From SAR324 cluster bacterium (GTDB lineage Bacteria > SAR324 > NAC60-12), in NCBI GenBank assembly GCA_022448485.1, contig JAKUUI010000003.1, forward strand, positions 3,156-67,155: 64,000 nt of DNA, written 5' to 3'. Below the pieces are notes generated by a model. That model was not told the DNA's origin. It saw only the letters and a program-made list of their open reading frames with translations, and did not search any database. Made by a program: the position numbers and the translations under genes. This document shows positions 3,787 to 33,071 of the stretch, piece by piece (within the stretch, counting starts at the first letter, position 1; each line of letters begins with the position of its first letter).

Positions 3787-3932
3787 AAAAATCGTGAAAC
3801 ACGGCTACTTAGTTCATTTAGAGGCATTAGTGGGAATATTAAATTTGGATAATATCAGCTTAAATAAACCCTGCCTACCCATTAATTTTTTCATAATTTC
3901 CAGGCATTCAAAATGGTAAAAAAAGGCACTGC

Positions 3933-4691
3933 ATGAGAAGCGCATTTTTTCAACAACCTCTGGAGTACCAAATTGAAGTTGAGGGGGAGTCATGGGAACA
4001 GGGCGAAGTGGTAAAAGGTCTACTTCGCGTGAGGAACATGAGCAGTGAAGCTGTCTCTGTAAAAACACCTCAGATAATCCTTGCACACGGTCTGAAGAAA
4101 GAGATCAAAGAAGCTGCAGAAGTCCCATGGGAAGTGGTGGGAAAACAAGTAGCAACTCAAGAAATTAGCTTGCAGGCCGCTGGTGAGCAGACTTTCGAAT
4201 GGAGTTTTATTTTGCCTACAGACTCTCCAATTACAGACAAACAGGGTGGACTGTATTTGCTTTTTGGCGGAGAGGAAGCACTAACTAAAGGTGGACGGCT
4301 TAATTTGCAGATTAACCTGCATCCGATCCTGCAAAATTTTCTGCAAACTTTCACGACTCAATTTCGGTTTCTGGAAAAATATCAAAAACGCAAATCAGAA
4401 TGGACTGAGATCAAGCTTATTCCACCGGAATCACGGGAATTTCCCAACATGGACTATGTGTATTGTTTCCTCCGGATTCGTGACGAGCAGCTCGAGGCAC
4501 ACTATCGTTTCAAAATGAGCGGGCTCGGACGCACAGGTGAAAAAATGACAGTCACAAAAAAGAATCGTGAGCTCGAACAGAGTATCCCTCCGGAAAACTA
4601 CCTGCAGCCGGGAGGTTTCCCAAATCGTGCATGTTTTCGTGAAAATATTGATCAAGCCCTCAATATTGCCAGGCCAGAAGTAATGTTTTGA
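3933..4691 (+). CDS. Hypothetical protein (252 aa)
   Basis: Long ATG-initiated ORF with an AAAGG SD-like element upstream. I recognise no family with confidence. The N-terminal half resembles beta-sandwich arrestin/Spo0M-like proteins, but that is an impression only. Confidence 0.55.
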   Translation: MRSAFFQQPLEYQIEVEGESWEQGEVVKGLLRVRNMSSEAVSVKTPQIILAHGLKKEIKEAAEVPWEVVGKQVATQEISLQAAGEQTFEWSFILPTDSPITDKQGGLYLLFGGEEALTKGGRLNLQINLHPILQNFLQTFTTQFRFLEKYQKRKSEWTEIKLIPPESREFPNMDYVYCFLRIRDEQLEAHYRFKMSGLGRTGEKMTVTKKNRELEQSIPPENYLQPGGFPNRACFRENIDQALNIARPEVMF

Positions 4692-14208: not shown

Positions 14209-14312
14209 AAATTTTAATCTGGTGTTGATGAACTAGTAAAAGGTCAAAAAACCGCACTTATTTGTTGTTCCCGCAAAAGCTGGAATGACAACTTATTACG
14301 AGCTTGTCAGTG

Positions 14313-14666
14313 TTAGTTTCTTTCAGAAAGTTCCGCACAACCCGGAGGTTCAGAGAAAACATTCCCTGGAACCGGATCAACTCCTCCCGGATGCAACGGA
14401 TTGCATTTCAAGATCCGCCACAAGCTCAAATATGTTCCCCTCCATAAACCAAGAGTTTGATAGGATTCCAGAGCATATGCTGAACAGGTGGGGTAAAACC
14501 TGCAGGAAGCAGGTAAAAAAGGCGACACCCAAGATCTATACCACTTAATAAAGCCCACAATGTAACGACGGTAAATATTACTCTTTTCATTATCCAGAGA
14601 GATCTTGCAGGTAGTCCAAATTGTTGATGCTGCCGGAATTTGCATTGTGTCTGCCGGATCATTCAC
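14313..14666 (-). CDS. yidD: Membrane protein insertion efficiency factor YidD
   Basis: The core is YRSWVSPFLPASCRFYPTCSAYALESYQTLGLWRGTYLSLWRILKCNPLHPGG. The N-terminus is longer than usual, so the true start may be the internal ATG at 14645. It overlaps the rnpA stop by 8 nt. Confidence 0.85.
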   Translation of the reverse strand: MNDPADTMQIPAASTIWTTCKISLDNEKSNIYRRYIVGFIKWYRSWVSPFLPASCRFYPTCSAYALESYQTLGLWRGTYLSLWRILKCNPLHPGGVDPVPGNVFSEPPGCAELSERN

Positions 14667-15021
14667 TTGATTCCTTATTTAAGTTATTGAAAAATCGTCT
14701 GACCTGACGCAGGACATAAGATGAGTCCAAAGGGTGCTTTGGAGGGCTGGCTACAAAAAAACAAATGTCATATGCGTAATTCAACAGGGATCGTTCCTGA
14801 CGGATCGCCTCTCTTAACAAACGTTTGATACGATTACGACAAGTAGCACTCCCGGCCTTCTTCTTAACAGAGACTGCAAAACGGCTTGACTCTGCTTCCG
14901 CCATTTTATATTTGACACCAATCGGCCCCAAAGATAGATAAACACCCTTCTCAAACACTTCCCGAATAGTTCGGCTATGATGTAGCCTGACTGCTTTCGG
15001 AAAAGTTCTCCGCATGCTCAT
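14659..15021 (-). CDS. rnpA: Ribonuclease P protein component
   Basis: 120 aa and basic, with [11 protein letters not shown]. The gene sits between rpmH and yidD. Its start ATG overlaps the rpmH stop (ATGA). Confidence 0.88.
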
Positions 15022-15152
15022 GCACTAAGGCGTTTTCTACCTTTAGCTCGTCGACGCTTGATAACTCTGCGGCCTCCAGGTGTCGCCATGCGTGCCCGGA
15101 ATCCGTGTTTCTTTTTGCGGCGCCGATTGTTCGGCTGGAAAGTGCGTTTCAT
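15018..15152 (-). CDS. rpmH: 50S ribosomal protein L34
   Basis: Absent from the ORF track (under 60 aa). My translation of the minus strand from ATG 15152-15150 gives [44 protein letters not shown], with stop TGA at 15020-15018. This is the canonical L34 sequence. Confidence 0.95.
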
Positions 15153-15646
15153 TGTTATCTGTCTTTAAAATAAAAAAAGTATTATTAAAAATGTAATCGT
15201 TAATTCGAACCTATTTTTATCAAGAATACAAGCTTTAATGGTAATTAACTTTCACTTTACAAATAACAATAGTCCCGTCAAGGTTCAGTTTTTACGCTCC
15301 TGCGACAAATTTTTTGAGATAAACTACATCTGCACGTGTGCAAAATTAGCCCTCATGAATCATAACATCTGTCCATAATCAATCCTCCCCAGCGCTCCGT
15401 CACCTGCATTTGGGTTAGAACAGAGGCTACTATAGAAAAGATTGTTCTATCCTGAAACATTTCAGAATGACTCAATTTCTGACAATAAGACAATAGGGCA
15501 GTAAGGCACTGAGGCAAAAGACGCTGAGTATTCCAGGCAGAGATATCTACGTGCTTTGTAGCCTCAGTTCCTTCCCAGGCCGGTATGGTGTCGCATATTG
15601 GGCTGCAATGATCTGCATTTTGCTTTAACTACCTCAAAACAAATGC

Positions 15647-15673
15647 TAAAGAAAATTGCTCAGATTCCGATAT
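15647..15673 (+). promoter_or_regulatory. Second, weaker sigma-28-like promoter upstream of flagellin 1
   Basis: TAAA(15647-15650)-N15-TCCGATAT(15666-15673). The spacing matches the consensus, but the -10 element deviates at two positions. Confidence 0.3.
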
Positions 15674-15730
15674 AGGGAAGGACTGCACAAAATCCAGTTT
15701 ATTTATTGTGGTGCAGAAAAATATATTTGC

Positions 15731-15757
15731 TAAAGAAATATGTCTATCTGCCGATAA
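15731..15757 (+). promoter_or_regulatory. Sigma-28 (FliA) class-3 flagellar promoter of flagellin 1
   Basis: TAAAGAAA-N11-GCCGATAA, that is TAAA(15731-15734)-N15-GCCGATAA(15750-15757). It matches the TAAA-N15-GCCGATAA consensus exactly and lies 45 nt upstream of the ATG at 15802. Confidence 0.8.
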
Positions 15758-15801
15758 GAGGGCAAGAGAACCTTTACTAGGACACTTAAGAGTTAATAAT
15801 C

Positions 15802-17571
15802 ATGGCATTGCGAGTCAACTCAAATATTGCGGCATTGAACGCGCTGAGGCACCTGCAGCAGACAGAGCAGGAATTGGGGAAAAACCTGGAGCGCTTGTCT
15901 TCCGGCCGCAAGATCAATCATGCTGCTGACGGACCAGCATCGCTTGTGATTTCTGAACAGATGAAAACACAGATTTCAGGGCTCGGACAGGCAATTCGCA
16001 ATTCCGAATCATCCATTTCAATGATTCAGACCACAGAAGGTGCATTAAATGAGGTGAGTAACATTTTAATAAATTTACGTCAACTAGCTGTGCATGCTGC
16101 TAATGAGGGTACAAATGACGAAAAAATGCTCCAGGCAGACCAAAATGAGGTTAATAACTTAATCTCTACATTGAGAAATATCGCCAAGAACACTCAGTTT
16201 GGAACAAGAAATTTGCTTGACGGAAGTAATTCAGCTACTGGTGTTGCAATTGGAAACAATCTGGAATTTGTTTTTGCATCTGACGAGGCAAAATCTTCTC
16301 CGTCAAACGGATTTAAAGTTGATATCACACAGGTAGCAACTCGTCCGATGATGATTGCTACACGCCGGTTAAGTCTTGAAGATGTTTCATCATCAGATCC
16401 GAATAATGATTTTTCTTTTGTTATAAATGAAGGGGGTCGCACTGTTTCTGTGGATCTGAAAAACAACAATGATTTACGTGAGACAATCGAAAAATTGGCT
16501 ACCTCTGCAATAAGAAACGGAACTCCGGAAGCAAAGATAAGGACTGAACGTGCCATACAACAGTTGATTGCATTCGAAATGCAGAGACTGGCAGATGAAG
16601 CAAACATGGACCTGGACATTTTTGTTTATCGTCCTGCGGACAATTTGGGACCATTTCTCGAAAACTTCGATACCTTGAATGATACATTGACAGAAATTGC
16701 GAGAACGCTAGGGGCACTAGAAGAGATCAGCGATGTTCTTGGAAGCGCTGACGAGGTGATTGTGATGAGGCACCGTCAATTCGGGAGTGAGCCAAATTTC
16801 ACTGTTTCTTCAACTTTGGAAAACTATTTTGGCGAGAATATACAAGCAAACGAAGCTGTTTTTGCTATTCCGGGACGTGATGTGGAAGGCACAATAGGCG
16901 GATACCCTGAGGTTGACGGAGGAGGTGCAGCCATGGGCAAAGGGCAGTTTCTTACTGGAGCACCCGGCGCAGAAGCAGAGGGAGTCACGGTAAAATACGG
17001 TGAGACAACGGACGATGTAATTTACGAGATTGCTAACCGTTCTGATAATCGGGTATCAGGAACGTTCAAACTGGAGCAGAACAATGATAGCTTAGTTGGT
17101 GAAGATGTGGACGGATTTGTACATGTATCACAAAATTCTCTTGCTTTTCAAATTGGCCCGAATCAAGGACAACTAAGACGAATTTCAGTTGACAGCATGA
17201 GTCCGGAACAGCTCTCAAATGGAGTAGAAAATGACAGCAATTTTCATAGTTTGGCCGAAATTGATGTGCTGGACGCAGATGCAGCTCAAGATGCTTTGCT
17301 GTTGATTGATCAAGCTATTGATGATGTTTCCACTATGCGTGGAAATCTTGGTTCATTCCAGAAAAATGCTTTGGAAGCAAATTTACACGGCTTGCGTGTC
17401 TCAAAGGAAAACTTGACTGCTTCGGAATCTCAGTTAGCAGATACCGACATGGCACAAGAGATGAGTTCATTGGTCAAAAATCAAATATTGCTTGCTTCTG
17501 GAACAGCTATGCTGGCGCAAGCCAATCAGGTCCCGCAGTCCGTTATACAGTTGCTCAATGCAAACGGCTGA
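15802..17571 (+). CDS. fliC: Flagellin (589 aa, large variable central region)
   Basis: Conserved N-terminus (MALRVNSNIAALNALRHLQQTEQELGKNLERLSSGRKINHAADGPA) and C-terminus (DTDMAQEMSSLVKNQILLASGTAMLAQANQVPQSVIQLL), with about 350 aa of non-conserved central sequence. Confidence 0.93.
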   Translation: MALRVNSNIAALNALRHLQQTEQELGKNLERLSSGRKINHAADGPASLVISEQMKTQISGLGQAIRNSESSISMIQTTEGALNEVSNILINLRQLAVHAANEGTNDEKMLQADQNEVNNLISTLRNIAKNTQFGTRNLLDGSNSATGVAIGNNLEFVFASDEAKSSPSNGFKVDITQVATRPMMIATRRLSLEDVSSSDPNNDFSFVINEGGRTVSVDLKNNNDLRETIEKLATSAIRNGTPEAKIRTERAIQQLIAFEMQRLADEANMDLDIFVYRPADNLGPFLENFDTLNDTLTEIARTLGALEEISDVLGSADEVIVMRHRQFGSEPNFTVSSTLENYFGENIQANEAVFAIPGRDVEGTIGGYPEVDGGGAAMGKGQFLTGAPGAEAEGVTVKYGETTDDVIYEIANRSDNRVSGTFKLEQNNDSLVGEDVDGFVHVSQNSLAFQIGPNQGQLRRISVDSMSPEQLSNGVENDSNFHSLAEIDVLDADAAQDALLLIDQAIDDVSTMRGNLGSFQKNALEANLHGLRVSKENLTASESQLADTDMAQEMSSLVKNQILLASGTAMLAQANQVPQSVIQLLNANG

Positions 17572-17710: not shown

Positions 17711-20700
17711 ATGGAACTGTATGCTTCAATAAACGGAACCGCCTTGGCAGAACTGAATCCGAATGCGATCACCGGCTTGGGGTCAAAGCTGAATACAAAG
17801 GAGATCATCGATCGCTTTATGGCTATCGAGCAGCGCCGGATCAAGCCTGTGGAGACTCGTAAAGAACAGAAAGTAAGTGAGCTGGAAGCTTGGGATGCTG
17901 TAAAAATGGAGTTAAAAAAGCTCCAGGGTGTAACCGAAGCACTGAACAAGTATGAAATTTGGGAGGCTCGGAAAGTAGAAACCAGTGATCCGGATGTTGT
18001 GGAACCGCAAGCGCGGAAAGATTCCGTGCCGGGGAGGCATACGATGATAGTGGAATCAGTGGCCTTGTCGCATCAAATAACTTCGCAAGGATTCGAGCGT
18101 GACGACGTCCGGATTGGTACTGGAAAGATCCAGATTCAGGTTGGAGACGATGAAGATGAGACGCCTGTCACAATCAATCTGGCTGAAGGTAAAGATACAC
18201 TAGTTGATTTGAAGCAGGCCATCAACAACTCTGACGCTGGGGTGGAGGCCTATATTGCAAAAACACATGGCGAAAACCCATTTAGGCTGCTTTTAACCAG
18301 CGACACGAAAGGTGAGCAAGGACGAATTAATATAGACGTAAATCTTAAAGGCGGAGAAGTTAGCGGGCCGAGTTATCTAAACACATTTGATAAAACTTCC
18401 ACCTGGAAGGGGCTTCAGGCTAAGGAAGCAAAAAAAGCAGCAGGTGCTGGATTTGGCGGTTCAACAAATATAGTTGAAGTGGGAGGAACGTACTCTGGAG
18501 AAGAAGACAACATCTTTACGTTTACTGTAGAGCGTGCCGGAATGATTCCTTCTGAAGCCGGTGTACTCATTGTCTGGAAGGATATAAACGGCCGAGAGGG
18601 TGAAATAGAGATCAATAAGTTTAATTATGTTCCCGGAAGCCCGCTTGACGTGACGGACGGATTAAAATTGTTGATTAGTGACGGTGAACTTGTAGGTGGT
18701 GACAACTTTACTGTTGATGTTTCTGCAGAAAAATCCGATATGCTGTGGTGGCTGAGCGACGCAGAGCGTGCACCACAAATTTCACAACCATCCGACTGGA
18801 GCAGTAAGGCGTCAGAAGGAGGTGTTCGAGTTACCGGTACATACGATGGATTAGAAGATGATACTATCATTTTTAGGGTGGAGGGCAATGGACAGGTTGG
18901 TGGCCCGAGTCCACTGAAATTGCATTACGAATATTCTGAAACTGGAGAAAAAGGTTCTGTCAATATTGGACACCCTTATCTTGGAGAAGTTGGTAAAGAA
19001 GGACCATTTGATCAGGCTACTGCTTTTGACTCTGAAGATGGTGAAGAACTCTTCGATTTGGAGTTCAGTAAGAAAGGCCGTCGTGACCCAAAGCGTCTGC
19101 CTCTGGGACATGGATTATTTGTAGAAGTGAATCCCAGTGTTTTAAGGGACGGGGATAGTACGGATGTGGATGTAATTGCTCCAACTTCAGAAGATATGTG
19201 GTGGAGCGACGATGAACATCGTGGTGTTTCTAATAAAATTGATGTTCAAGCAAAGTGGATGACCTACGATGAGTATGAAGGAATTGATGAAGACGTAACG
19301 AGAAGTAAACTCGACGTTTCTGCTGGAGTCTGGGGGGCGTCAGGAGGTCTTAGCAATGCTCCCATAGAAATATCCGGTACATTTGAACCGGATATCGCTA
19401 AAACATATACTTTTAGAGTTGAGAAGAGGGGTACTGTCGGTATCACACGTGGCCTACAATTGAGATGGGAAGATACGTTTGGCGGCAACGGTTCTGTAGA
19501 AGTGGGTGAGGGCTATATTCCTGGGACCCCAATATTATTTGATGAGGGATTAAGACTGGCCCTTGGAAAAGGTGGTTTATATCCAGATGATTATTTTACT
19601 ATCTCAACAGAGACTTCAACTGTCAGACTGGCTCAAGATTTAGTCTTACGCCTTGGAGCCACCAGAAGTGGAGAAGGCCTGGAGGTAAGGCGTTCGGAAA
19701 ATGTGGCAAATGATGTGATCCCTGGACTCGATCTGGAGTTTTTTTCGTCCAGTGATGAACCCGTAACTGTATCTGTATTGGGTGACACAGAGGTAGCTAA
19801 AGAGCGCATTCATGATTTTGTAGATGCTTACAATACATTTCAGGCAACTGCAAAAGAAGTGTCAAAGTACGACAAGTCGACAAACACGGCTGCGCCTTTG
19901 TTAAGTGACAGGAATCTGGCTCAGATGGTCAATGAAATTGCGAACACAACAATTGCAACCGTAAGTGGGTTGCCGCAGTCGACTAATATGCTTTTTTCTA
20001 TTGGCCTGAAAATCGATGATAGAGGCCAGATGTCTATTGAAGAGAAAAAATTAAACGAAAAGATAGTTGATGCTTTTTCTGATGTTGCTAATTTATTCCG
20101 GAGTCATGGAAAAACAGATAATCCCGGAGTAAGTTTTCTGGGAATGACTGAAAAAACTAGGGTCAATCCCAGCGGTTACCAAGTGGACGTCTCGAATGCT
20201 GCTGAACGCGGATTCTATTTGGGAACTCCACTCCCCGGAATTATAAGAGTTGATGATACAAACAATGTTTTAATTATTAAAAATAACGGCAGGGTATCTG
20301 ATCCGATTGAATTGCGCAAGGACAACTATACTCTCGGCAGTCTGGCCAAAACCATCCAGAACCGTTTGATGGAAGACAAAGTTTTGGGACGCCGTAGATT
20401 ACAGGTTCGTGAAGAAGAAGGAAGGCTGATGATAATTTCGGGGACTTATGGAAGCAGCAGTACAATTGAGGTGGAGCCCGGCCCAGATAAGGAACTCAGC
20501 GGTTTGGGGCTGACAGATGGTGTCAGCACTCCGGGAGAGGATGTTGCAGGATCAATCGGGAATGTGGAAGCAACAGGCAGAGGACAATTGCTTATGGGAG
20601 CGGAAGATTCCAATGCTGACGGTTTGAGATTGTTCGTGACACTTAGCGAAGACGACCTGGTTAAGGAACAAGAGGCTACTGTGAATATTTCCAAAGGTGT

Positions 20701-20959
20701 AGCTGTTAAATTAGGTCAGAAACTTGATAAATTGAATGATCCTCTGGATGGTAATGTCAAGCGGGCTACAGATGATATAACTGGACAAATGAGTAGTTTT
20801 GAGGAGCAAATAAGCCGCTTAAACGAACGGGCCGATACTAAGCGTTCAAGGTTGCAGAGTAAATTTGCAAAACTGGACAGCACTATGGGAAGATTAAAAT
20901 CCCAACAAAACTATATCAACCAGCAACTCTCCGCAATGAGCGGAGCTAATAAGTCCTAA
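17711..20959 (+). CDS. fliD: Flagellar filament cap protein FliD (HAP2), unusually long (1082 aa)
   Basis: FliD-type N-terminus (ITGLGSKLNTKEIIDRFMAIEQRRIKPVETRKEQKVSELEAW) and C-terminus (RLNERADTKRSRLQSKFAKLDSTMGRLKSQQNYINQQL). Gene order is flagellin-fliD-fliS. The middle of the protein contains three tandem repeats. Confidence 0.88.
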   Translation: MELYASINGTALAELNPNAITGLGSKLNTKEIIDRFMAIEQRRIKPVETRKEQKVSELEAWDAVKMELKKLQGVTEALNKYEIWEARKVETSDPDVVEPQARKDSVPGRHTMIVESVALSHQITSQGFERDDVRIGTGKIQIQVGDDEDETPVTINLAEGKDTLVDLKQAINNSDAGVEAYIAKTHGENPFRLLLTSDTKGEQGRINIDVNLKGGEVSGPSYLNTFDKTSTWKGLQAKEAKKAAGAGFGGSTNIVEVGGTYSGEEDNIFTFTVERAGMIPSEAGVLIVWKDINGREGEIEINKFNYVPGSPLDVTDGLKLLISDGELVGGDNFTVDVSAEKSDMLWWLSDAERAPQISQPSDWSSKASEGGVRVTGTYDGLEDDTIIFRVEGNGQVGGPSPLKLHYEYSETGEKGSVNIGHPYLGEVGKEGPFDQATAFDSEDGEELFDLEFSKKGRRDPKRLPLGHGLFVEVNPSVLRDGDSTDVDVIAPTSEDMWWSDDEHRGVSNKIDVQAKWMTYDEYEGIDEDVTRSKLDVSAGVWGASGGLSNAPIEISGTFEPDIAKTYTFRVEKRGTVGITRGLQLRWEDTFGGNGSVEVGEGYIPGTPILFDEGLRLALGKGGLYPDDYFTISTETSTVRLAQDLVLRLGATRSGEGLEVRRSENVANDVIPGLDLEFFSSSDEPVTVSVLGDTEVAKERIHDFVDAYNTFQATAKEVSKYDKSTNTAAPLLSDRNLAQMVNEIANTTIATVSGLPQSTNMLFSIGLKIDDRGQMSIEEKKLNEKIVDAFSDVANLFRSHGKTDNPGVSFLGMTEKTRVNPSGYQVDVSNAAERGFYLGTPLPGIIRVDDTNNVLIIKNNGRVSDPIELRKDNYTLGSLAKTIQNRLMEDKVLGRRRLQVREEEGRLMIISGTYGSSSTIEVEPGPDKELSGLGLTDGVSTPGEDVAGSIGNVEATGRGQLLMGAEDSNADGLRLFVTLSEDDLVKEQEATVNISKGVAVKLGQKLDKLNDPLDGNVKRATDDITGQMSSFEEQISRLNERADTKRSRLQSKFAKLDSTMGRLKSQQNYINQQLSAMSGANKS

Positions 20960-20981: not shown

Positions 20982-21449
20982 ATGAGTACCTATGGTAACT
21001 ACCAGAATGCCTATAAAAAGGCCTCTGTCAACACACTTGATCAAAATAAACTGATCATTATGCTCTATGATGGAGCCATAAAGAATGCCAGTTTTGCTGT
21101 TGAGCACATGAAATCAGAGGAAATAGAGAAGGTCCATGATTGTTTAATAAAAACTAAGAACATTGTGACCGAACTAATGGCAACCCTGAATATGGATCAT
21201 GGAGGTGATATCGCAAAAAATCTTCAGTCACTCTATAGCTACATGTTTAGCCAGCTGATTGAGGCAAACATGGAAAAAAAGCCTGAACCAGTTATTGTCG
21301 TAATAGATTTACTCAAGGAGTTGCGGGCGGCCTGGGTGCAAATTAATTCAAAAAAGAAACCAGGTGCAACAAAACAAAATGCTACTACACAAGGCATGAT
21401 GCAAAATAATCAGGAGAAAGCCGAGAAGCATATTAATGTGACGGGATAA
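20982..21449 (+). CDS. fliS: Flagellar export chaperone FliS
   Basis: 155 aa. YQNAYKKASVNTLDQNKLIIMLYDGAIK...LQSLYSYMFSQLIEAN is the FliS pattern. It lies directly after fliD. Confidence 0.88.
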   Translation: MSTYGNYQNAYKKASVNTLDQNKLIIMLYDGAIKNASFAVEHMKSEEIEKVHDCLIKTKNIVTELMATLNMDHGGDIAKNLQSLYSYMFSQLIEANMEKKPEPVIVVIDLLKELRAAWVQINSKKKPGATKQNATTQGMMQNNQEKAEKHINVTG

Positions 21450-21642
21450 ACTTTGGGAAAATTGACTTGGTTGCCAGATAAAAAGGTATCATTTACACAA
21501 GCTAGGGATGTCAGGAGCTCGCATTACGCATTAAATGAAATATGAGATTTCTGCTCTCTGGTCATTTCGGCGATAAACTTTGCAGGAATGACAACGAAGA
21601 GTAGTGTTAGACTTTTTTCAAGACTCTCAATTAGAGAGGAGA

Positions 21643-21815
21643 AAAATAGAATAAATTCAAGTTAAAGCCAAAGGATAGCAAACTGCTATTTTTTGGCTTT
21701 GTTGTCTAAAGTATTGATTCAGCAGGAATAACCCGGCTGCAAACTGCACATGTGGGCCGCAACTGTTTGAGTTGCAGGTGTTTCTGAGGCATGTACTGTT
21801 TGTCAGCTGGGTTTT
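21643..21815 (+). repeat. Repeat family R1, copy 1 (two-hairpin element)
   Basis: By eye about 80-85% identical to 22951..23120. Hairpin 1 is 21664-21700 (AAAGCCAAAGGATAGCA/TGCTATTTTTTGGCTTT). Hairpin 2 is 21731-21812: outer stem CCCGGCTG/CAGCTGGG, middle stem GCACATG/CATGTAC, inner stem GCAACT/AGTTGC. Confidence 0.85.
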
Positions 21816-21935
21816 ACCTCAGAAGAAAAAACGAACTTTTGGTTTGAGATTGTTCTAACATAGTGTGACTGGAATTAATGTAGCAGCAAATTAGGCCGTG
21901 AAAATACTGCCTTAATTTAAAAAAATTATAAGAGA

Positions 21936-22562
21936 ATGGGTAATTGGCATGAGGCTGAGGTATCTTTGCGCCAGGCGGACTCTATAATTGCCGGAATAAT
22001 TGAACATACCGGGCCTTGTGAATTGATAAAGCATGAAGGAGGATTTGCCGGGTTGGCAAGTTCCATCATTGGACAGCAACTCTCAAATCAAGTTGCAAAA
22101 ATAATCCGGGCAAGGTTCCGGAAGCTCTTTGAAAATGAACTGCCTGATCCCAGGTATTTACTGAAACTAGATGATTCTGTCTTGAGAAAGGCAGGATTGT
22201 CTTTCCAGAAAATCAAATACCTGCGTGGTTTGGCGCAATGGTTGGATAGTGGTGAGCTGGATTTTTCTGCATTGGCAAAGATGGATGACGAAATTGCAAT
22301 TCAGCAACTTGTCCTAGTGAAAGGCATTGGACGCTGGACTGCTGAAATGTATTTAATGTTCAGCTTGAATCGTCCGGATCTGTTGCCTTTGGATGATGCG
22401 GCTCTTGAGGCCGCATTGAAACGGCTCTATGATCTTCCGGAAAAAGGTTGGAAAGAGCTGGCTGTTTCGATTGCAGAAAAATGGAGACCGTGGCGGACTG
22501 TAGCTTGCTGGTATCTCTACCGATATCACAAATTGGTGAAAAACGGAGAGGCTCCGTTCTGA
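21936..22562 (+). CDS. DNA-3-methyladenine glycosylase II-like (HhH-GPD family, AlkA-like)
   Basis: 208 aa. HhH motif LVKGIGRWTAEMYLMF followed by the Asp-containing LLPLDD, and a C-terminal WRPWRTVACWYLY. Confidence 0.78.
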   Translation: MGNWHEAEVSLRQADSIIAGIIEHTGPCELIKHEGGFAGLASSIIGQQLSNQVAKIIRARFRKLFENELPDPRYLLKLDDSVLRKAGLSFQKIKYLRGLAQWLDSGELDFSALAKMDDEIAIQQLVLVKGIGRWTAEMYLMFSLNRPDLLPLDDAALEAALKRLYDLPEKGWKELAVSIAEKWRPWRTVACWYLYRYHKLVKNGEAPF

Positions 22563-22574
22563 AATCTCCATCTT

Positions 22575-22945
22575 GTTGAAATTAGAGGGCTACTTAATTG
22601 GTGGGAACCTCTGTTGATCTTTGAAAATTGAATAATCAACTAATCCTCATGCGGGAATCCCTGTCAAATGGGATAAACGCCAGCTGCTTAGCAAACCAGG
22701 CCGGTGGGCTATATTTTTCTGAATATAACTGTTCGGATCAATGTGTCTTCACTACATCCTGAAAATCTACTGCAGCAGGAGTGTTGTTTTTCATACTGCG
22801 GCCTGTGATTATGCGGTTAGTTGCTACATGACGGAAGTAGAAAACGAACATTTTACTCTGAAGCAAAATGCCAGATGATGGCCCTTTGCTTGGATAGTCA
22901 GGTGAAGAATTGGATCTTGAATAGAAAACCAATCACTGAAAAGAC
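22575..22945 (+). repeat. Repeat family R2, copy A: conserved intergenic module plus a decayed, truncated 5' fragment of a DUF1835 gene
   Basis: Aligns with 24040..24420. Shared blocks are GTTGAAATTAGA, TTAATTG, TCTGTTG.TCTT.GAAAATT, GTCAA, CTATATTTT and TTCGGAT.AATGT. From ATG 22741 the sequence is homologous to the DUF1835 N-terminus (SV...D.A; LHDG), with at least one frameshift. Homology stops where R1 copy 2 begins. Confidence 0.75.
22688..22715 (+). promoter_or_regulatory. Putative sigma-70-type promoter inside R2 copy A
   Basis: TTAGCA-N16-TATATT. The equivalent position in R2 copy B carries TTGAAT-N18-TATATT. Confidence 0.3.
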
Positions 22946-22950
22946 CCTAC

Positions 22951-23120
22951 AAATAGAAACAAAGCTAAAGCCAAAGTATAGCTCACTGCTATACTTTGGC
23001 TTTGTTGTTTAACAAATTGGATCAAGCCAGAATTACCCGGCTGCAAGCCGCACATGTTGGCCGCAACTGTTTTGAGTTGCAGCTTTTTCTGAGGCATGTG
23101 CTGTTTGTCAGCCGGGTATT
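22951..23120 (+). repeat. Repeat family R1, copy 2
   Basis: Hairpin 1 is 22967-23003 (AAAGCCAAAGTATAGC/GCTATACTTTGGCTTT, perfectly paired). Hairpin 2 is 23035-23117 (CCCGGCTG/CAGCCGGG, GCACATG/CATGTGC, GCAACT/AGTTGC). The stems are better paired than in copy 1. Confidence 0.85.
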
Positions 23121-23520
23121 ATCCGGCAGATAAAATTGTCAGGGAGAAATATGTCTGCTCGGCAATGGATTGAAATAGATAGTTATATAGAAAATTGTTG
23201 AGATGCCCTGCAATACTATTTAAAGCTGTTTTTAGGTGTTAACTGCTAAGAACTGAGCCTACCAACAATTGGGAAAGTTAGAAGCATAGAGCCTGGTTGT
23301 CCAAGTGCCTGACTCATGCTGGTATGGTTTTGGGTGCTTGACCTGACCAACTTCATTTTGCTATAAAAGCAAATAGATTTACGGCTTGATGTGAGATTTA
23401 TGGTTTGCACCGTCGATGGAATTAGTACTTTATCTTGGATTGTTGTAAGTATAAAAGTAGGTTGATTTAGGCCTTGTGAACTGAGCCTGTAAAAACCGTA
23501 ATTTAATTGGAGCGTGATTT

Positions 23521-24008
23521 ATGAAAATATACGTAGGAACATTGTCTCCAGATGACGGCCAAGAGTGGAAAAATTTATATCGTGGATATGCCGAGTTTCA
23601 CTATGATCCCATGAATAACGAAATTCTCGACACTGTCTGGAATTAGATTTTTGATGAAGACGAAGCATTCTATGATTTGGTAGCTAATAATGAAGAGAAG
23701 CGTCCTGTCGGTCTCATGCACTTCCGGGAAATGGCCTCACCTTTAAGAGGCAAAAATGTAGGTTTTTTAGATGACCTTTTTGTAGTCCCTCGGAGTCACG
23801 TGGAACAGGAGTAGAAGGCGAAATGTTTCAAAAATTAACTGCGAAATCCACCGACAATGGATGGCCTTTTGTGCGCTAGATAAAGGCGGAAGACAACTAT
23901 CGTGGCCGAGGTGTTTATGATCGAATCGCTGAAAATACAAAATAGGTGACATACCAACATGAATGTTTGATCTCAAAATCTTTGTTGCTGTCACAAAACG
24001 TCCGATGA
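23521..24008 (+). pseudogene. GNAT-family N-acetyltransferase, disrupted by three in-frame TAG codons and one frameshift
   Basis: My translation is MKIYVGTLSPDDGQEWKNLYRGYAEFHYDPMNNEILDTVWN*IFDEDEAFYDLVANNEEKRPVGLMHFREMASPLRGKNVGFLDDLFVVP, then a frame change near 23790, then ESRGTGVEGEMFQKLTAKSTDNGWPFVR*IKAEDNYRGRGVYDRIAENTK*VTYQHE... The TAGs are at 23644, 23877 and 23943. GNAT motif A (RGTGVG-like) is present. Confidence 0.7.
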
Positions 24009-24039
24009 AGACAGAGTGGTGCTGCCTAAATAATATACT

Positions 24040-24420
24040 GTTGAAATTAGAACCTTTTTTAATTGAATGAGGTTCTGTTGCTCTTGGAAAATTTAATCAG
24101 GTACATCTCCGCTCGTGGAGAACTCCGTCAAGAACGGCCTTCACTGAATATTGAATGAACAAAGCGGGTTGGACTATATTTTGTCTATAAGATATTCTTT
24201 CGGATAAATGTTTTTCAACACTGGTGAAATCAGTTTTGAGGAGAGTGTCTTGCTGTATATTGTGAGTGGAGATTGCGCCATCGAAGCATTAAGAGATTCC
24301 GAAATTGAAGGGGATTTTCCTTCCTAGATGGTTGTACTTCATGATGGACCCGTGCCTGAAGGACTGCGTCTTGAGGAACTCTCTAATATTCGAGCTAAGT
24401 TCATTGCAGAATGTGATTGG
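24040..24420 (+). repeat. Repeat family R2, copy B (intergenic module plus the 5' end of the full-length DUF1835 gene)
   Basis: See copy A. Hairpin AGAACCT/AGGTTCT is at 24049-24076 and the palindrome GGAGAACTCC is at 24117-24126. The distance from GTTGAA to the ATG is 168 nt, against 166 nt in copy A. Confidence 0.75.
24151..24180 (+). promoter_or_regulatory. Putative sigma-70-type promoter inside R2 copy B (upstream of the DUF1835 gene)
   Basis: TTGAAT-N18-TATATT, with the -10 element ending 28 nt before ATG 24208. Confidence 0.3.
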
Positions 24421-25242
24421 GATTCTCTTGAAAATGCTAAGGACTCTTTTCGGAAAATGGACCTTGTTTTCCATAATTGTCACAAATACGACGAAGTGGT
24501 ACTTTGGAACAGCTTTGAATTGTTCGATCAGCTTCATCTGCTGCAGTTGTTAGATTGTTTTGCCTACAAGCAGGAAGTCTCTCAGCGCTTGAGTATTATT
24601 TTTATTGATGAGTACCTGTGGCAGGCTACTTCTGAGTCCCAGCTGGAGAGGCTTGGAAAGAGAGAACCAGTTTCTGAAAAACAACTCGTTCTTGGACAAC
24701 TTAGCTGGACTGCTTTTACTGCTCCAACACCTGAATTGATGCTTGAACTGATGCAGGAATGCACCTCGGTTTTACCATTTTTGCAGAACGCACTGTTCCG
24801 CCTTTTTGAGGAATTTCCCGCAGAGTGGAGCGGTCTGCCCCAGACAGAGCATTGCATTTTAGAGCAAGTAAGAGGTGGAATCTCCTAGCTCGTCAGTTTG
24901 TTTTCTGCAGTTCAAGCAGAGGAACCGGCCCGTTTTATGGGGGATTGGTCTTTTTGGAAACGCGTGCGCAGGCTCGTAGAATCTCCTCGGCCATTATTGG
25001 AATTGGAGGGCGATGTCCATTTTTATGAACCTCCAAAGACTCCTTTTCCTGATCCGGTTTTCGGGAAATTTGATGCTCAGGTGACAGGTTTAGGAATTGA
25101 GATCCTGGATAATAATGTGGATTGGCTCAGACAAAATCCACATGATTATTGGATTGGTGGGGTCCATCTTCATCCCGGTAATGATTGGAGATGGAATGCG
25201 GAGCGTATACAATTTTTAATAAAAGAACGGAGTTCTATGTGA
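24208..25242 (+). pseudogene. DUF1835/DUF3658-type protein gene: one reading frame interrupted by two in-frame TAG codons
   Basis: ATG 24208 gives MFFNTGEISFEESVLLYIVSGDCAIEALRDSEIEGDFPS, then TAG (24325-24327). Track ORF 24328..24888 follows, ending in TAG (24886-24888). Track ORF 24898..25242 continues in the same frame. Family hallmarks as I remember them are VVLWNSFELFDQLHLLQLLDCFA, LPFLQNALFRLFEEFP and FMGDWSFW. Confidence 0.65.
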
Positions 25243-25269
25243 AAGGAACTTTTCCGTCTTGGCTCCGGC

Positions 25270-25794
25270 ATGCACATTCAAGTCAGGTATAGAATGAATG
25301 TACGAAATAGTGAACCGGAAACAATTTGGCATCTTGAAATGCTGCATCCGGAGGAATTATGCGCAAGAGTGCTGCCTCCGGAAACTCAATTGGTGAAGCA
25401 AGAAATTCCTTTGCCAGATTTGAACCGCTTTTTTTACCTGGAAGTGGGCAAGTTGTGGCAATGGACGGATCGTCTCTTGTGGACTGAAGAACAGTGGCGG
25501 AACTGGGTAGAGCGTGAAGCTCTTCAGACCTGGATGTTGCTTTTTCATGGCACTCCCGCCGGTTATTTTGAATTGAATTCCCTTGATGGGGCAGTTGAAA
25601 TTGCTTATTTTGGCTTACTGCCATTGTTTATTGGTAAAGGGTTAGGTGGCGGATTGTTGTCCGCAGCCGTTGAGAAAGCATGGGGGATGAACGCAAAGCG
25701 GGTTTGGGTACATACCTGCAGCCTCGATCATCCTTATGCCTTGAAGAATTATCAAGCTCGAGGCTTTCAAATTTATCGTGAAAGCCCTGCTTAA
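25270..25794 (+). CDS. GNAT-family acetyltransferase (intact)
   Basis: 174 aa with motif A region LLPLFIGKGLGGGLLSAAVEKAW. It starts 27 nt after the DUF1835 stop. The start could also be ATG 25294. Confidence 0.75.
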   Translation: MHIQVRYRMNVRNSEPETIWHLEMLHPEELCARVLPPETQLVKQEIPLPDLNRFFYLEVGKLWQWTDRLLWTEEQWRNWVEREALQTWMLLFHGTPAGYFELNSLDGAVEIAYFGLLPLFIGKGLGGGLLSAAVEKAWGMNAKRVWVHTCSLDHPYALKNYQARGFQIYRESPA

Positions 25795-26640: not shown

Positions 26641-27792
26641 ATGTCTCTACATTTTGACATCAAGGAGTTTCGAAACCGACTCAATCGTTTACTGGAGTTG
26701 ATGGCTGAAAATGACTTGGATGGGATGCTTCTGTTTCGGCAGGAAAGCATGTTTTATCTGACGGGTTATGACACATTCGGCTATGTATTTTTTCAGTGTC
26801 TTTACCTGGGTGGAGACGGGAAACTGATTCTGCTGACTCGAGCACCGGATTTACGGCAGGCACGGCATACTTCTATCGTCGAAGATATCCGGATCTGGGT
26901 GGATGGATCGGAAGTAAATCCTGCTTTGCAGCTCAAGAATATTTTGCAGGAATGCGGTTGTGCTGGGAAACGACTTGGAGTGGAATACGACTCTTACGGC
27001 TTGACCGCCAAAAATGGGAAAATGCTGGATTACGCTCTGGATGGTTTTTGCCGGTTGACAGATGCCTCCAATCTGGTGAATCTTCTGCGGGTCGTGAAAA
27101 GTCCGGAAGAATTGGTCTATGTCCAGAAGGCTGCTGAGTTGGCAGATGAAGCTCTGGATGAGGCACATCGCTTAGTGAAGAATGGATGCGATGAGGCCGA
27201 GCTCCTGGCGGCTATGCAAGGTGCAGTATTTCGTGGCGGAGGAGATTACCCGAGTAACGAGTTTATCATCGGATCCGGTGATAATGCTTTGCTTTGCCGC
27301 TATTATTCTGGAAGACGAAAACTGAGTTCCAAAGACCAGATTACTTTGGAGTGGGCTGGAGCTTATCGCCACTACCACGCAGCGATGATGCGCACAATTC
27401 CAGTTGGTCTGGTGACTGAACAGCACCGGAAAATGCACGAGGTTTGTCTTGAGGCAATGGAGGCTTGTGAATTAGCTTTGCGTCCCGGTAAAGCCATCGG
27501 CGAGGTTTTTGATGCTTACGCTCATTCTTGTGATAGTGCTGGAATGCAGAGCCACCGGTTGAATGCAACCGGATACAGTTTGGGGGCAACTTTTTCGCCA
27601 AACTGGATGGACTGGCCTATGTTCTATCACGGCAATCAAGTGATTGTTGAAATAAATATGGTGTTTTTTCTTCACATGATTTTGATGGACAGTGACTCTG
27701 GGAATGCCATGTGTTTTGGACATACCGTCATAGTGACGGATTCTGGATGCAAACGTCTTTCGCGTCACCCACTGGATTTGGTGGTGCGTTAA
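26641..27792 (+). CDS. M24-family metallopeptidase (Xaa-Pro dipeptidase / creatinase-like)
   Basis: 383 aa. Creatinase/prolidase-type N-terminal domain (FRNRLNRLLELMAENDLDGMLLFRQESMFYLTGYDTFGY) followed by a pita-bread C-terminal half. Confidence 0.8.
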   Translation: MSLHFDIKEFRNRLNRLLELMAENDLDGMLLFRQESMFYLTGYDTFGYVFFQCLYLGGDGKLILLTRAPDLRQARHTSIVEDIRIWVDGSEVNPALQLKNILQECGCAGKRLGVEYDSYGLTAKNGKMLDYALDGFCRLTDASNLVNLLRVVKSPEELVYVQKAAELADEALDEAHRLVKNGCDEAELLAAMQGAVFRGGGDYPSNEFIIGSGDNALLCRYYSGRRKLSSKDQITLEWAGAYRHYHAAMMRTIPVGLVTEQHRKMHEVCLEAMEACELALRPGKAIGEVFDAYAHSCDSAGMQSHRLNATGYSLGATFSPNWMDWPMFYHGNQVIVEINMVFFLHMILMDSDSGNAMCFGHTVIVTDSGCKRLSRHPLDLVVR

Positions 27793-30216: not shown

Positions 30217-31683
30217 ATGCCGTTGGGGATGAAACACAACATCGTATCTATCAACGCGTTAAATCACCTGGCAGAAGCACAAAATGAACTGTACGGCTCA
30301 TTGAGACGCTTATCTTCAGGACAAAGGATCAACAGTGGAGCAGATGACCCGGCTGGTCTGGTTATTTCTGAGGGTCTTCGTGCTCAGATTGCCAGTGTAC
30401 AGCAAGCTCTGCAAAATACTGAGTTTTCCCTGTCTCTGGTCCAGACCGCTGAAGGTGCTTTGGCAGAAGTGAACAATTTGCTGATTGAAATGCGTCAATT
30501 AGCGACAACTGCTGCAAATGAGGGTGCAACCGATTATAGTGCAATGTTGGCATTGCAGTTTCAGATTCGCACAGCAATCGATGGAATTGACCGTGTTTCA
30601 CGGTTTACTCGCTTCGGCAATACAAATCTGCTGGACGGTAGTCATGGAACTACAGGAATGGGAGGAAATGAAGAACTTGTTTTTCTTAAAGCATCATCGA
30701 AAACAATCTCATCTCCGCTCAGTGGCTATGAAGTGGATATTACCGAATTGCCTAAGAGGGCAAATCTGACAGAAGACCTTGATGATGATGGTGCATCCGG
30801 ATTACAAATCACATTAGAAGAAGAAGACGGAGCTATAATCAGAGTCAGAAATCCAGAAGTGGGGACAGCAGAGGGTTTTGCAAACCGCCTGCAAGAAGCT
30901 GCTTTTGAAGCAAACATGAACTTGGACATACTCTTTGATGTAGATGAAGAAGAGCTTACAATTGAGCATCGGGAATATGGACTTGCCAAAGGATTCACTG
31001 TCACGGGTAACAAGGATGGAGTAATTGTGGAAGATGCTTTTGAACCCAAATTATTTTTGGGAAGGGATATAGAGGGAACCATAAATGATGAGCCTGCTGA
31101 AGGTGATGGATTGGTCCTTACAGGAGATTTAAATAACGAGAATACAAGTGGTTTGAGTGTAGCTTTTTTAGGCAACGATACCGGTAATGCCGGATCCGTA
31201 ACTGTTGCGCAAAATGCTCTTAAATTTCAAATAGGACCAAGTGCGGATGAAAATATTCTGATCGCACTGAATAGCACTCATTCTACAGTCCTGGGAAGAG
31301 GTGTGGATAATAAGAGTGGTTTCGACAATTTGTCCCAAATCAGGCTCACATCTGCTCAAGAGGCCATCGACGCAATTCGTCTTGTAGATGAGGCTCTTGA
31401 TCAATTATTATCGATGCGTAGCCAACTCGGTTCTGTACAAAAACACACGCTTGAAACAAATATTTCAGTGCTCCAGTCCACTGCAGAAAATTTAACTGCA
31501 GCTGAATCCAGCGTCCGGGACACAGATATGGCAATGGAGATGGTCAATTTTACAAAAAACCAAATCATAACAGAAAGTGCCGCCGCGGCGGTCGCTCAGG
31601 CCAATCAGACGGCTGCTCGTGTTTTGAGGATCTTGTTTAACAATAATGCGAGTTATTACTGGTCATCTTCCACAAACCATTGA
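30217..31683 (+). CDS. Flagellin (488 aa) with an atypical C-terminal extension
   Basis: N-terminus NALNHLAEAQNELYGSLRRLSSGQRINSGADDPAGLVISE and C-terminus DTDMAMEMVNFTKNQIITESAAAAVAQANQTAARVLRIL, followed by 12 extra residues (FNNNASYYWSSSTNH). Confidence 0.9.
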   Translation: MPLGMKHNIVSINALNHLAEAQNELYGSLRRLSSGQRINSGADDPAGLVISEGLRAQIASVQQALQNTEFSLSLVQTAEGALAEVNNLLIEMRQLATTAANEGATDYSAMLALQFQIRTAIDGIDRVSRFTRFGNTNLLDGSHGTTGMGGNEELVFLKASSKTISSPLSGYEVDITELPKRANLTEDLDDDGASGLQITLEEEDGAIIRVRNPEVGTAEGFANRLQEAAFEANMNLDILFDVDEEELTIEHREYGLAKGFTVTGNKDGVIVEDAFEPKLFLGRDIEGTINDEPAEGDGLVLTGDLNNENTSGLSVAFLGNDTGNAGSVTVAQNALKFQIGPSADENILIALNSTHSTVLGRGVDNKSGFDNLSQIRLTSAQEAIDAIRLVDEALDQLLSMRSQLGSVQKHTLETNISVLQSTAENLTAAESSVRDTDMAMEMVNFTKNQIITESAAAAVAQANQTAARVLRILFNNNASYYWSSSTNH

Positions 31684-31697
31684 TCGTTGCTCAAAAA

Positions 31698-33071
31698 ATG
31701 CGCCTTGACGATACAATTGCTGCGATAGCAACTCCCTTGCAGCCATCCGGACTAGGAGTAATCAGAATAAGCGGACCACAGGCAGTTCCAGTGGTGGAAC
31801 CGTTGTTCAAAGGTGGTGGGAAAGAACTGCAAAAGACAGAAACACACAAACTTATTCATGGCTGGATACATGATGACGGGAAACTACTTGACCAAGTTTT
31901 AGTAGTCGTCATGCGTGCTCCGCATTCTTTCACCACAGAGGATGTGGTTGAGATTCAGTGTCACGGCAGTCCATTTATTTTGCGCACAATTCTGACTTTG
32001 GTTTTGCGTCAGGGAGCGCGCTTGGCAAAGGCTGGAGAGTTCACTCAAAGAGCTTTTTTGCATGGACGTTTAGACTTGACACAAGTGGAAGCAGTTTCAG
32101 ATTTGATTCATGCCAGTTCTGAAATTGGGGCTAAACTGGCCGCACAACAACTTTGTGGAAAACTTTTTCACGCCATTAATCAGGTAAAAAAACAAGTGGT
32201 GTCCATAGCTTCACTGGTTGAAGCCAACATAGAGTTTCCCGAAGAAGATACTGAATTTACGCATCGAGATGATTGTCTGCAGCGACTGAATCAGGCCAGT
32301 GCTGATTTGGAAAATTTACTGTCTCATGCAGACCGTGGACGACAGATACGTGATGGTTTTAGTGTAGCACTGATTGGCCGGCCGAATGTCGGCAAATCTT
32401 CACTGCTCAATACCTTGCTCCGTGAACAAAGAGCAATCGTGACCACCATTCCAGGAACAACTCGTGATTCAATTGAGGAATCAGTACAAATTCAGGGATT
32501 GGCTTTTCGATTAACTGACACCGCCGGCATTAGAAAAACAGAAGATCTGATTGAAACAGAAGGTATCCGGCGTACACAAAATGTCCGGGACAATGCCGAC
32601 TTGGTCCTGCTTATTCTGGATGCCAGCGAAAAACTTATGGACGAAGACCTTAGTTTAATCAGTGAAATCGAACAGGAACGAACAATAGTTGTCCTAAATA
32701 AAAAGGATCGAATGACTGGAAAGAGGCCGATTTGGCACAAAGAAATATCCGGAATGGATGCTGTTTTGATTTCAGCAAAAACCGAAGATGGTTGTGATGA
32801 GTTGGAATCACGCTTATTTGCAAAGGCCGCTCTGGGCGGTTTACCGCAGGAAGATCAAACCTGGATCACAAACCGCAGGCAGCAACATGCTGCCAAACAA
32901 GCACTGTCTGCTTTGTTCTCAGCACGGGAAGGTTTGATACAGTCAAATGGGGAAGAGTTTCTTGCAGTAGATTTACGCTCCTGCTTAAACGCTTTGGGTG
33001 AAATTGTCGGCGAAACTACGACTGATGATTTGCTTGGACAGATTTTTTCGGAGTTTTGTATTGGGAAATAA
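31698..33071 (+). CDS. mnmE: tRNA modification GTPase MnmE (TrmE)
   Basis: The track ORF starts at TTG 31680, but ATG 31698 gives MRLDDTIAAIATP, the usual MnmE N-terminus. It has G-domain motifs GRPNVGKSSLLN and DTAGIR and the canonical C-terminal CIGK. Confidence 0.92.
   Translation: MRLDDTIAAIATPLQPSGLGVIRISGPQAVPVVEPLFKGGGKELQKTETHKLIHGWIHDDGKLLDQVLVVVMRAPHSFTTEDVVEIQCHGSPFILRTILTLVLRQGARLAKAGEFTQRAFLHGRLDLTQVEAVSDLIHASSEIGAKLAAQQLCGKLFHAINQVKKQVVSIASLVEANIEFPEEDTEFTHRDDCLQRLNQASADLENLLSHADRGRQIRDGFSVALIGRPNVGKSSLLNTLLREQRAIVTTIPGTTRDSIEESVQIQGLAFRLTDTAGIRKTEDLIETEGIRRTQNVRDNADLVLLILDASEKLMDEDLSLISEIEQERTIVVLNKKDRMTGKRPIWHKEISGMDAVLISAKTEDGCDELESRLFAKAALGGLPQEDQTWITNRRQQHAAKQALSALFSAREGLIQSNGEEFLAVDLRSCLNALGEIVGETTTDDLLGQIFSEFCIGK

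Follow-up and report, generated by a model that had tools for sequence, protein, structure and literature searches.

Organization of the fliS-Proximal Locus

The present analysis concerns a locus just downstream of the flagellar gene fliS in a marine bacterium of the SAR324 cluster, an abundant, uncultured deep-ocean group, in which two repeat families, here named R1 and R2, are interleaved with unrelated genes. The window, i.e., the whole stretch of DNA that was analyzed, comprises 64 kb of chromosomal DNA (contig JAKUUI010000003.1). Proteins near-identical to its FliS are labelled SAR324 by their sources, and the identical FliS protein is found on contigs in 241 blocks of the searched collection, including a Tara Oceans marine metagenome. 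Downstream of fliS lie, in order, R1a, a gene for an HhH-GPD (AlkA-like) DNA glycosylase, R2a, R1b, a spacer followed by a broken GNAT acetyltransferase gene of 148 amino acids (aa; GNAT148), R2b together with a 330-aa gene, and a second GNAT gene of 167 aa (GNAT167) (Table 1). This order, with two copies of each repeat family, had been proposed in a preliminary description made from the sequence of the window, and it was borne out by direct-repeat searches, MAFFT alignment, and nhmmer. As argued below, the arrangement is probably the scar of a single, very old tandem duplication, which was inherited vertically and then followed by lineage-specific gene loss. A literature search on this SAR324 locus gave nothing relevant.

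R1 is about 160-180 nucleotides (nt) long, and its two copies, first found as direct repeats (21659-21816 and 22962-23121) and then extended by MAFFT alignment to the boundaries given in Table 1, are ~84% identical (nhmmer E 1e-31). The two copies of R2 (22569-22892 and 24036-24374) show ~60% identity (nhmmer E 1e-10 and 3e-9), and their homology is plain in an alignment of nine sequences from five lineages, in which it reaches ~22925, corresponding to codon ~58 of the 330-aa gene. Only two copies of either family are present within the 64 kb. R2 is made up of a small terminator-like hairpin, a promoter-like site, a ribosome-binding site, and the 5' end of the 330-aa gene up to codon ~58. The hairpin stems differ between the two copies by compensatory changes (AGAGG/CCUCU versus AGAACCU/AGGUUCU), and the promoter-like sites occupy homologous positions in R2a and R2b, R2 being the only element in which a promoter scan found such sites. 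It had been stated that R2 starts 13-32 nt after the stop codon of the preceding gene; the actual distances are ~10 nt after the glycosylase stop for R2a and ~65 nt after the ancestral GNAT stop for R2b.

The genes enclosed between R1 and R2 (hereafter cargo genes, in slots 1 and 2) are unrelated to each other, as had been suggested, one belonging to the HhH-GPD and the other to the GNAT family. The glycosylase has a weak NCBIfam match to DNA-3-methyladenine glycosylase 2, and its orthologues are located in the same slot in clades B1 and B2 of the lineages compared below. GNAT148 is disrupted in the window by TAG codons at 23644, 23878, and 23944 (each derived from TGG) as well as by frameshifts, with the ancestral stop at 23968-23970, and an intact orthologue is encoded at 12316-12762 of contig L011. 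The gene downstream of R2b, previously described as a full DUF1835 gene, is a pseudogene with two in-frame TAG codons, one at 24325 (formerly TGG and still polymorphic, since L003 keeps TGG) and one at 24886 (formerly CAG). The 330-aa gene is only weakly DUF1835-like: its intact orthologue gives a sub-threshold Pfam match to PF08874 (17.5 bits, E 0.0046, cut-off 21.1) that covers profile positions 1-118 of 122, whereas the window copy gave no match to this family in the Pfam scan.

The nonsense changes in the two decaying genes comprise four TGG-to-TAG and one CAG-to-TAG changes, all of them GC-to-AT transitions, and a more distant strain (L024) carries further indels in both genes. Both are intact in the sister species, so that GNAT148 and the 330-aa gene are now dying in the window species only. 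Recoding of TAG was considered and rejected, as the changes are transitions from TGG or CAG, one of them is polymorphic, L024-type indels occur, and a flagellin gene uses TAG as its normal stop. GNAT148 and GNAT167 were also considered as paralogues derived from a larger duplication unit, which was likewise rejected (BLASTP E 0.43). The spacer between R1b and GNAT148 exceeds that of sister species by ~200 nt (L011, 187 nt; L035, 90 nt; L049, 327 nt), and no homology was detectable between it and the other sequences compared.

Table 1. Coordinates of the genes and repeat elements of the fliS-proximal locus in the window.
Feature	Position	Strand	Remarks
fliC	15802-17571		
fliD	17711-20959		
fliS	20982-21449	+	Pfam FliS E 8e-38; closes the fliC-fliD-fliS unit and anchors the locus on the left
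R1a	21643-21820	+	hairpin 1 at 21663-21701; hairpin 2 at 21731-21811
Slot 1, HhH-GPD (AlkA-like) DNA glycosylase	21936-22562	+	intact; Pfam HhH-GPD E 5.5e-12
R2a	22569-22925	+	decayed copy of the 330-aa gene's upstream sequence and initial ~58 codons; hairpin at 22584-22612; promoter-like site at 22688-22715
Duplication junction R2a/R1b	22926-22942		~20 nt 5' of the hairpin 1 palindrome
R1b	22943-23125	+	hairpin 1 at 22966-23004; hairpin 2 at 23035-23117
Spacer, R1b to GNAT148	23126-23520	+	395 nt
Slot 2, GNAT148 acetyltransferase	23521-23970	+	148 aa; pseudogene in the window
R2b	24036-24400	+	hairpin at 24049-24076; promoter-like site at 24151-24180; ribosome-binding site; 5' end of the 330-aa gene
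330-aa gene	24250-25242	+	start TTG at 24250; recent pseudogene in the window species
GNAT167	25294-25794	+	167 aa; intact; right anchor, kept in all lineages
M24 peptidase gene	26641-27792		

Conservation and Erosion of the Locus across SAR324 Lineages

The comparison covered ~75 loci from at least ten SAR324 lineages (FliS identity 76-100%), which were sorted by protein and profile searches and placed on a FliD/FliS tree. The arrangement of the window is repeated in 12 independent assemblies of the same species (L001-L010, L043, and L072; 97.4-100% identity). Many of the assemblies L001-L010 break 1-3 kb downstream of fliS (~22.5-24.5 kb of the window), inside the pseudogene region, which fits high micro-diversity. 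In sister species (FliS 86-88%, ~83% nucleotide identity in genes), the same order continues through the M24 peptidase gene and all genes are intact. The full layout is present throughout clade B2 (the window, L011/L042, and L020/L071) and in one lineage of clade B1 (L035). In another lineage of clade B1 (L023, L048, and L049), R2b and the 330-aa gene have been lost and R2a is kept, and in L046 (as well as L067, with extra repeats) the glycosylase gene, GNAT148, and the 330-aa gene are all gone, leaving fliS, R1a, R2a, R1b, and GNAT167. Clade A (FliS 76-81%) has kept R1a, R2a, hairpin 1 of R1b, and R2b, and a colinear, decayed HhH-GPD remnant is recognizable in L021 (nhmmer E 5e-10).

Taken over the ~75 loci, slot 1 contains the HhH-GPD gene, its decayed remnant, or nothing, and slot 2 contains GNAT148 or nothing; no alternative gene in either slot and no allele with a single unit, such as the single-cassette alleles envisaged in the preliminary description for this site, was found among them. 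The context of the R2a/R1b junction is common to all lineages in which it is readable (the window, L011, L020, L023, and L021).

In clade A, fliS is followed by 2.2-2.7 kb of DNA free of open reading frames (ORFs) at 24-27% GC (10469-13219 in L027, also in L028 and L029; 3055-5272 in L021). No ORF longer than 74 aa is present in this DNA, which has drifted to 24-27% GC in L027 and is, by the standards of marine bacteria, a long tract of dead DNA; in addition, the M24 peptidase gene is split in L027-L029. A different kind of change was observed in the L067-type lineage (7084-7682 in L067, also L032, L058, and L059), in which the tail of R2a is amplified to seven imperfect 58-nt copies with 44- and 79-nt spacing. 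Tandem Repeats Finder at its defaults reported nothing in L067, and the array was recovered by another repeat search. The same lineage carries an inserted perfect 28-nt inverted repeat (TTGTCATTCCCGCGAAAGCGGGAATCCA), a degenerate look-alike of which (GTCATTTCGGCG...GCAGGAATGACAA) is located at 21557-21597 of the window, between fliS and R1a.

A Probable Ancient Tandem Duplication Followed by Gene Loss

The units R1a...R2a and R1b...R2b stand head to tail, and the junction between them joins the end of one unit to the start of the next. The truncated gene fragment had been reported to end where the second R1 begins, and the junction was indeed placed at this point (Table 1). This anatomy is that of a tandem duplication whose unit extended from a point shortly 5' of R1 to codon ~58 in the 330-aa gene, which accounts for a left copy that ends in a truncated gene start abutting R1b and a right copy that runs on into the complete gene. 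As both the scaffold and the junction are common to the lineages, the event took place once, before the lineages split, and the later changes all represent loss. The cassette exchange or stacking proposed previously thus stands insofar as two units are joined head to tail, whereas a variable locus with exchange or ongoing stacking is not supported by the related genomes, among which the cargo differs only by loss.

The interiors of the two units (HhH-GPD and GNAT148) are unrelated and homology does not run throughout the units, so that secondary loss or replacement must be assumed. According to the proposed scenario, the duplicated unit would have carried both genes, the glycosylase followed by the GNAT, and each redundant copy would have been lost from a different unit. 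R1 would act as a double terminator or insulator of the flagellin operon, R1b would have been retained to terminate the glycosylase gene once the duplication had occurred, and R2a would be a non-functional duplicate that is progressively decaying. The scaffold has since been passed on vertically and eroded by ordinary deletion and GC-to-AT decay, lineage by lineage. Judged from the sequences, the presence of both genes followed by reciprocal loss appears to be the most economical route to the differing cargo. It is also possible that a gene was replaced in one unit after the duplication, which would give the same picture.

R1 as a Candidate Structured RNA

Each R1 folds into two consecutive terminator-like hairpins (fold z -5.3 for R1a and -9.7 for R1b). 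Hairpin 1 has an AU-rich stem of 16-18 bp (17-18 bp in R1a) between an A-run and a U-run, and hairpin 2, ~84 nt in length, forms a long imperfect stem with a GC clamp (CCCGGCUG/CAGCCGGG); its internal loop (UUUCUGAG) is invariant, and in most sequences the tract UUUU(G/A)UUU comes directly after it. In a consensus structure of 14 sequences, 96.4% of cells are paired and eight pairs are changed on both sides; none of 500 shuffled controls reached the observed values, and versions with slid partners dropped to ~40% paired. G-U cells far exceed A-C cells in the stems (222 versus 4 in 56 distinct sequences; 72 versus 5 in the 14 sequences), which argues that the structure belongs to a plus-strand RNA, i.e., to the strand of fliS and the cargo genes. 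A terminator scan flagged hairpin 1 of R1b on both strands and the inner stem of hairpin 2, and left hairpin 1 of R1a and the full hairpin 2 unflagged. No Rfam family matched the window at gathering thresholds, and permissive settings gave chance-level matches only, none of them for R1 or R2. Visual inspection of the inter-hairpin region and of the sequence upstream of R1 revealed no conserved sigma-70 or sigma-28 promoter. A small ORF across hairpin 2 (TRLQAAHVGRNCFELQ...) was rejected as a candidate, since indels of 1-2 nt in the apical loop shift its frame between copies.

Hairpin 2 is 90% identical between R1a and R1b, and its identity is 88-93% across every pair of paralogues and orthologues compared. 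Between the window and clade A, the spacer separating the hairpins is 37-45% identical and the fourfold-degenerate sites of fliS are 50-55% identical. These values point to a near-invariant hairpin 2 under strong purifying selection. R1a and R1b sort into orthologous a-type and b-type copies across species, and gene conversion between them may add somewhat to their likeness. In clade A, R1a is intact although no gene lies downstream for 2.7 kb, which suggests that its function is tied to the upstream flagellar transcript or to R1 itself and not to the cargo. That R1 is still a sharp repeat, whereas the equally old R2 has nearly faded, is accordingly explained by selection on R1 in both copies, R2a being junk.

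From its structure and position, R1 most likely serves to terminate the highly expressed flagellar transcript and to insulate it. A stable 3' untranslated region (3'-UTR) RNA may derive from it as well, by likeness to the Escherichia coli small RNAs (sRNAs) FliX (fliC 3' UTR) and FlgO (flgL 3' UTR; Melamed et al. 2023, PMC10578931). A more far-reaching reading, which is conceivable and which we favor somewhat less than its opposite, is that R1, above all hairpin 2, represents a functional RNA that is new, specific to SAR324, and attached to the fliC-fliD-fliS transcript at its 3' end, acting as a 3'-UTR riboregulator or a protein-binding stabilizer and not as a plain terminator, that two paralogous copies have been kept through the radiation of the clade, and that its palindromes have repeatedly seeded rearrangements, the original duplication included.

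A further peculiarity was noticed in L005 (11989-12025), where the loop of a perfect 37-nt palindrome, hairpin 1 of R1b, is inverted relative to all other strains (GCTCACTGC to GCAGTGAGC). This looks like a hairpin flip caused by template switching or arm recombination.

Distribution, Mobility, and Rearrangement of R1

An exact-core pattern of R1 (23 bases, which can miss diverged copies) was used to scan one genome each of 185,579 GTDB species as well as the JGI metagenomes. The genome scan returned eight stretches with 1-2 copies each, seven of which map to the SAR324 fliS locus or are compatible with being pieces of it, the eighth being L026. The metagenome scan returned 45 stretches. Over both scans, all stretches are located at the fliS locus except for the L026 type and L031. 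R1 and R2 are locus-specific, and the concern that they might be generic dispersed repeats was not borne out.

The L026 copy (3769-3981, also present in L063 and L069) spans 213 nt, from the final 20 nt of fliS through R1 to a point within the 3' arm of hairpin 2. With clade-A SAR324 sequences (L021 and L030) it shares 98.6% identity, and it occurs in three independent assemblies; this copy is probably real and represents either a transferred patch or a second site. The L026 contig is binned as Neomarinimicrobiota, and the piece sits in ~1 kb of low-GC DNA between genes of 50-55% GC that encode RIC/ScdA-like, HTTM-like, corrinoid, and MtaA-like proteins. In L031 (first 240 nt, reverse complement), a clade-A R1a and the ~165 nt that follow it are fused to a cytochrome c oxidase operon of ~50% GC; this single contig may be a chimera or a rearranged strain.

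Evidence of a mobility system was sought by several approaches. In agreement with the preliminary description, a Pfam scan, which covered ~42 long window ORFs but not those at 7158-11657 and 12439-15021, detected no recombinase, transposase, or integrase domain; orthologues of these last ORFs on related contigs have glutamate synthase, YidC, YidD, and RNase P domains. A search of 21400-25300 on both strands for attC cores (regular expression RYYYAAC-N40-130-GTTRRRY) yielded no pair, and R1a has neither motif. Plasmid and phage similarity searches returned no match, and no terminal inverted repeats or target-site duplications stood out at the R1 ends in the alignments, no dedicated search for them having been made.

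Rearrangement end-points are concentrated around the feet of the R1 hairpins. The ancient junction is found ~20 nt 5' of hairpin 1 and the L046 deletion begins directly after hairpin 2; further break-points are the reduction of R1b to hairpin 1 in clade A, the end of the L026 piece within hairpin 2, and the inverted loop of L005. Long palindromes provoke replication stalling and illegitimate joining. Because the break-points sit at the hairpin feet and palindromes have this property, the R1 palindromes probably favored these rearrangements, the original duplication included.

With regard to the wider genomic setting, the GC skew of the window switches sign at ~15-16 kb, beside rnpA-yidD-yidC (12439-15802), and a search for a cluster of DnaA boxes near this switch found none. 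The gene mnmE (31680-33071, at 31.7 kb) is located downstream of the flagellin genes, which places the flagellin cluster inside the usual origin-proximal gene set. In L015, which comes from a sister species, fragments of a DDE transposase are found upstream of fliC, where rnpA and yidC would be expected.

Alternative Explanations

Several observations weigh against the scenario of an old duplication with reciprocal loss and against the role proposed for R1. No genome with a single, pre-duplication unit is present among the ~75 loci, and the origin is read from the anatomy of the locus alone. Remnants of a glycosylase gene after R1b and of a GNAT gene before R2a were sought and none was detectable, which leaves the reciprocal loss without a direct trace, and the distance between the glycosylase stop and R2a is slightly too tidy for random deletion. 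The quartet site patterns of R1a and R1b are mixed, five supporting orthology and two supporting concerted change. The presence of the 213-nt R1 piece in an unrelated context of ~50% GC implies that R1-bearing DNA has moved at least once. As for the RNA itself, scans of translation starts for duplexes and an antisense search in the window, both aimed at base-pairing targets of the hairpin 2 loop, found nothing above background, and the function of R1 as a terminator or 3'-UTR RNA is one that we infer from sequence.

The alternative that survives best, although it is rather unlikely, is a one-off stacking event in which ancestral R1-glycosylase-R2 and R1-GNAT-R2 alleles were joined in tandem, either by unequal or illegitimate crossover or by single-crossover integration of a circularized fragment. 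Such an event would explain two unrelated genes between homologous flanks in one step, is equally compatible with the anatomy of the junction, and agrees with the finding that neither unit retains a remnant of the lost second gene; however, it requires a prior polymorphism that is itself unexplained, and the ~75 loci from at least ten lineages include no single-unit allele and no sign of later exchange. The idea of two alleles joined in tandem, which had already been put forward in the preliminary description, is therefore tenable as a one-off ancient origin, and it would leave the same picture as duplication with reciprocal loss.

It is much less likely that R1 is a small palindromic element, similar to miniature inverted-repeat transposable elements (MITEs) or repetitive extragenic palindromic (REP) sequences, which was inserted twice independently while the likeness of the R2 copies arose separately. 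The palindromic structure, the R1 copy outside the flagellar locus, and the invasion of the same region in L067 by another palindrome, the 28-nt perfect inverted repeat, would all suit such an element, but R2a abuts R1b exactly as one tandem duplication predicts, R1 is not dispersed, and both a-type and b-type copies have orthologues across species.

An active cassette system, with R1 and R2 as recombination sites (attC-like or of a new kind) and a recombinase encoded elsewhere, appears extremely improbable. The long imperfect palindromes of R1 between genes are superficially attC-like and one R1-containing fragment of the L026 type occurs in a foreign context; however, the ends of this fragment do not coincide with those of R1, as 20 nt of fliS belong to it and its other end falls within hairpin 2, and the G-U-rich pairing suits an RNA and not a DNA site. 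Moreover, each genome has two R1 copies at one locus, the cargo is invariant across lineages apart from decay or deletion, and no attC cores were found in the searched region and no integrase or transposase domains in the scanned window ORFs.

Finally, an assembly artefact in which two strain variants of one locus were collapsed or concatenated, a reading to which the many contigs of this species that end 2-4 kb after fliS might lend some color, can practically be dismissed, since the order is shared by no fewer than 12 independent assemblies of the species, as well as by dozens of assemblies of sister species, and the R1 (~84%) and R2 (~60%) copies are too diverged for strain variants; mis-assembly, which the preliminary description had named as a concern, does not account for the layout.

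Significance of the Locus

The preferred explanation, an ordinary old duplication with reductive decay, removes this locus from the list of candidate mobile cassette systems and provides a natural example of a short non-coding element that survives in both duplicates while the surrounding coding DNA is lost lineage by lineage. In addition, the locus offers a structured RNA motif, a candidate for a new one, which is located at the end of the SAR324 flagellin operon and carried by contigs from many marine metagenomes, and it shows genes of a free-living marine bacterium in the course of dying through GC-to-AT nonsense mutations. The novelty is modest and consists of the old duplication scar and the candidate RNA motif without an Rfam family, both in SAR324.

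Comparison with Known Systems

R1 shares with REP sequences, bacterial interspersed mosaic elements (BIMEs), and MITEs the property of being an intergenic, hairpin-forming repeat, but it differs from them in having two copies at one locus per genome, each with orthologues across species. Similarly, integron arrays with their attC sites, including clusters of attC sites lacking integron-integrases (CALINs), also contain imperfect palindromes of 80-160 nt between unrelated small genes in one orientation. In contrast to these arrays, the present locus has neither attC cores nor, in the scanned ORFs, intI, contains two copies only, and keeps its cargo fixed across species; furthermore, R1 is found on both the upstream and the downstream side of genes, and its pairing is that of a G-U-rich RNA.

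A likeness also exists to FliX, FlgO, and intrinsic terminators, with which R1 has in common a structured element at the 3' end of a flagellin operon, consisting of a GC-clamped hairpin and a U-tract. The sequence of R1 is conserved beyond the needs of termination, as in 3'-UTR sRNAs such as FliX and FlgO. Unlike these sRNAs, to which it has no sequence or Rfam relationship, R1 is present in two paralogous copies, is confined to SAR324, and gave no evidence of Hfq involvement and, in the duplex and antisense scans, none of targets.

The system that the locus resembles as a whole is tandem segmental duplication followed by loss. It differs from the familiar pattern in that the units now contain unrelated genes without detectable remnants of their partners and that the non-coding R1 is nearly intact in both; however, the head-to-tail units, the junction gene that is truncated on the left and complete on the right, the decaying R2a, and the lineage-specific losses are all features that it shares with such duplications.

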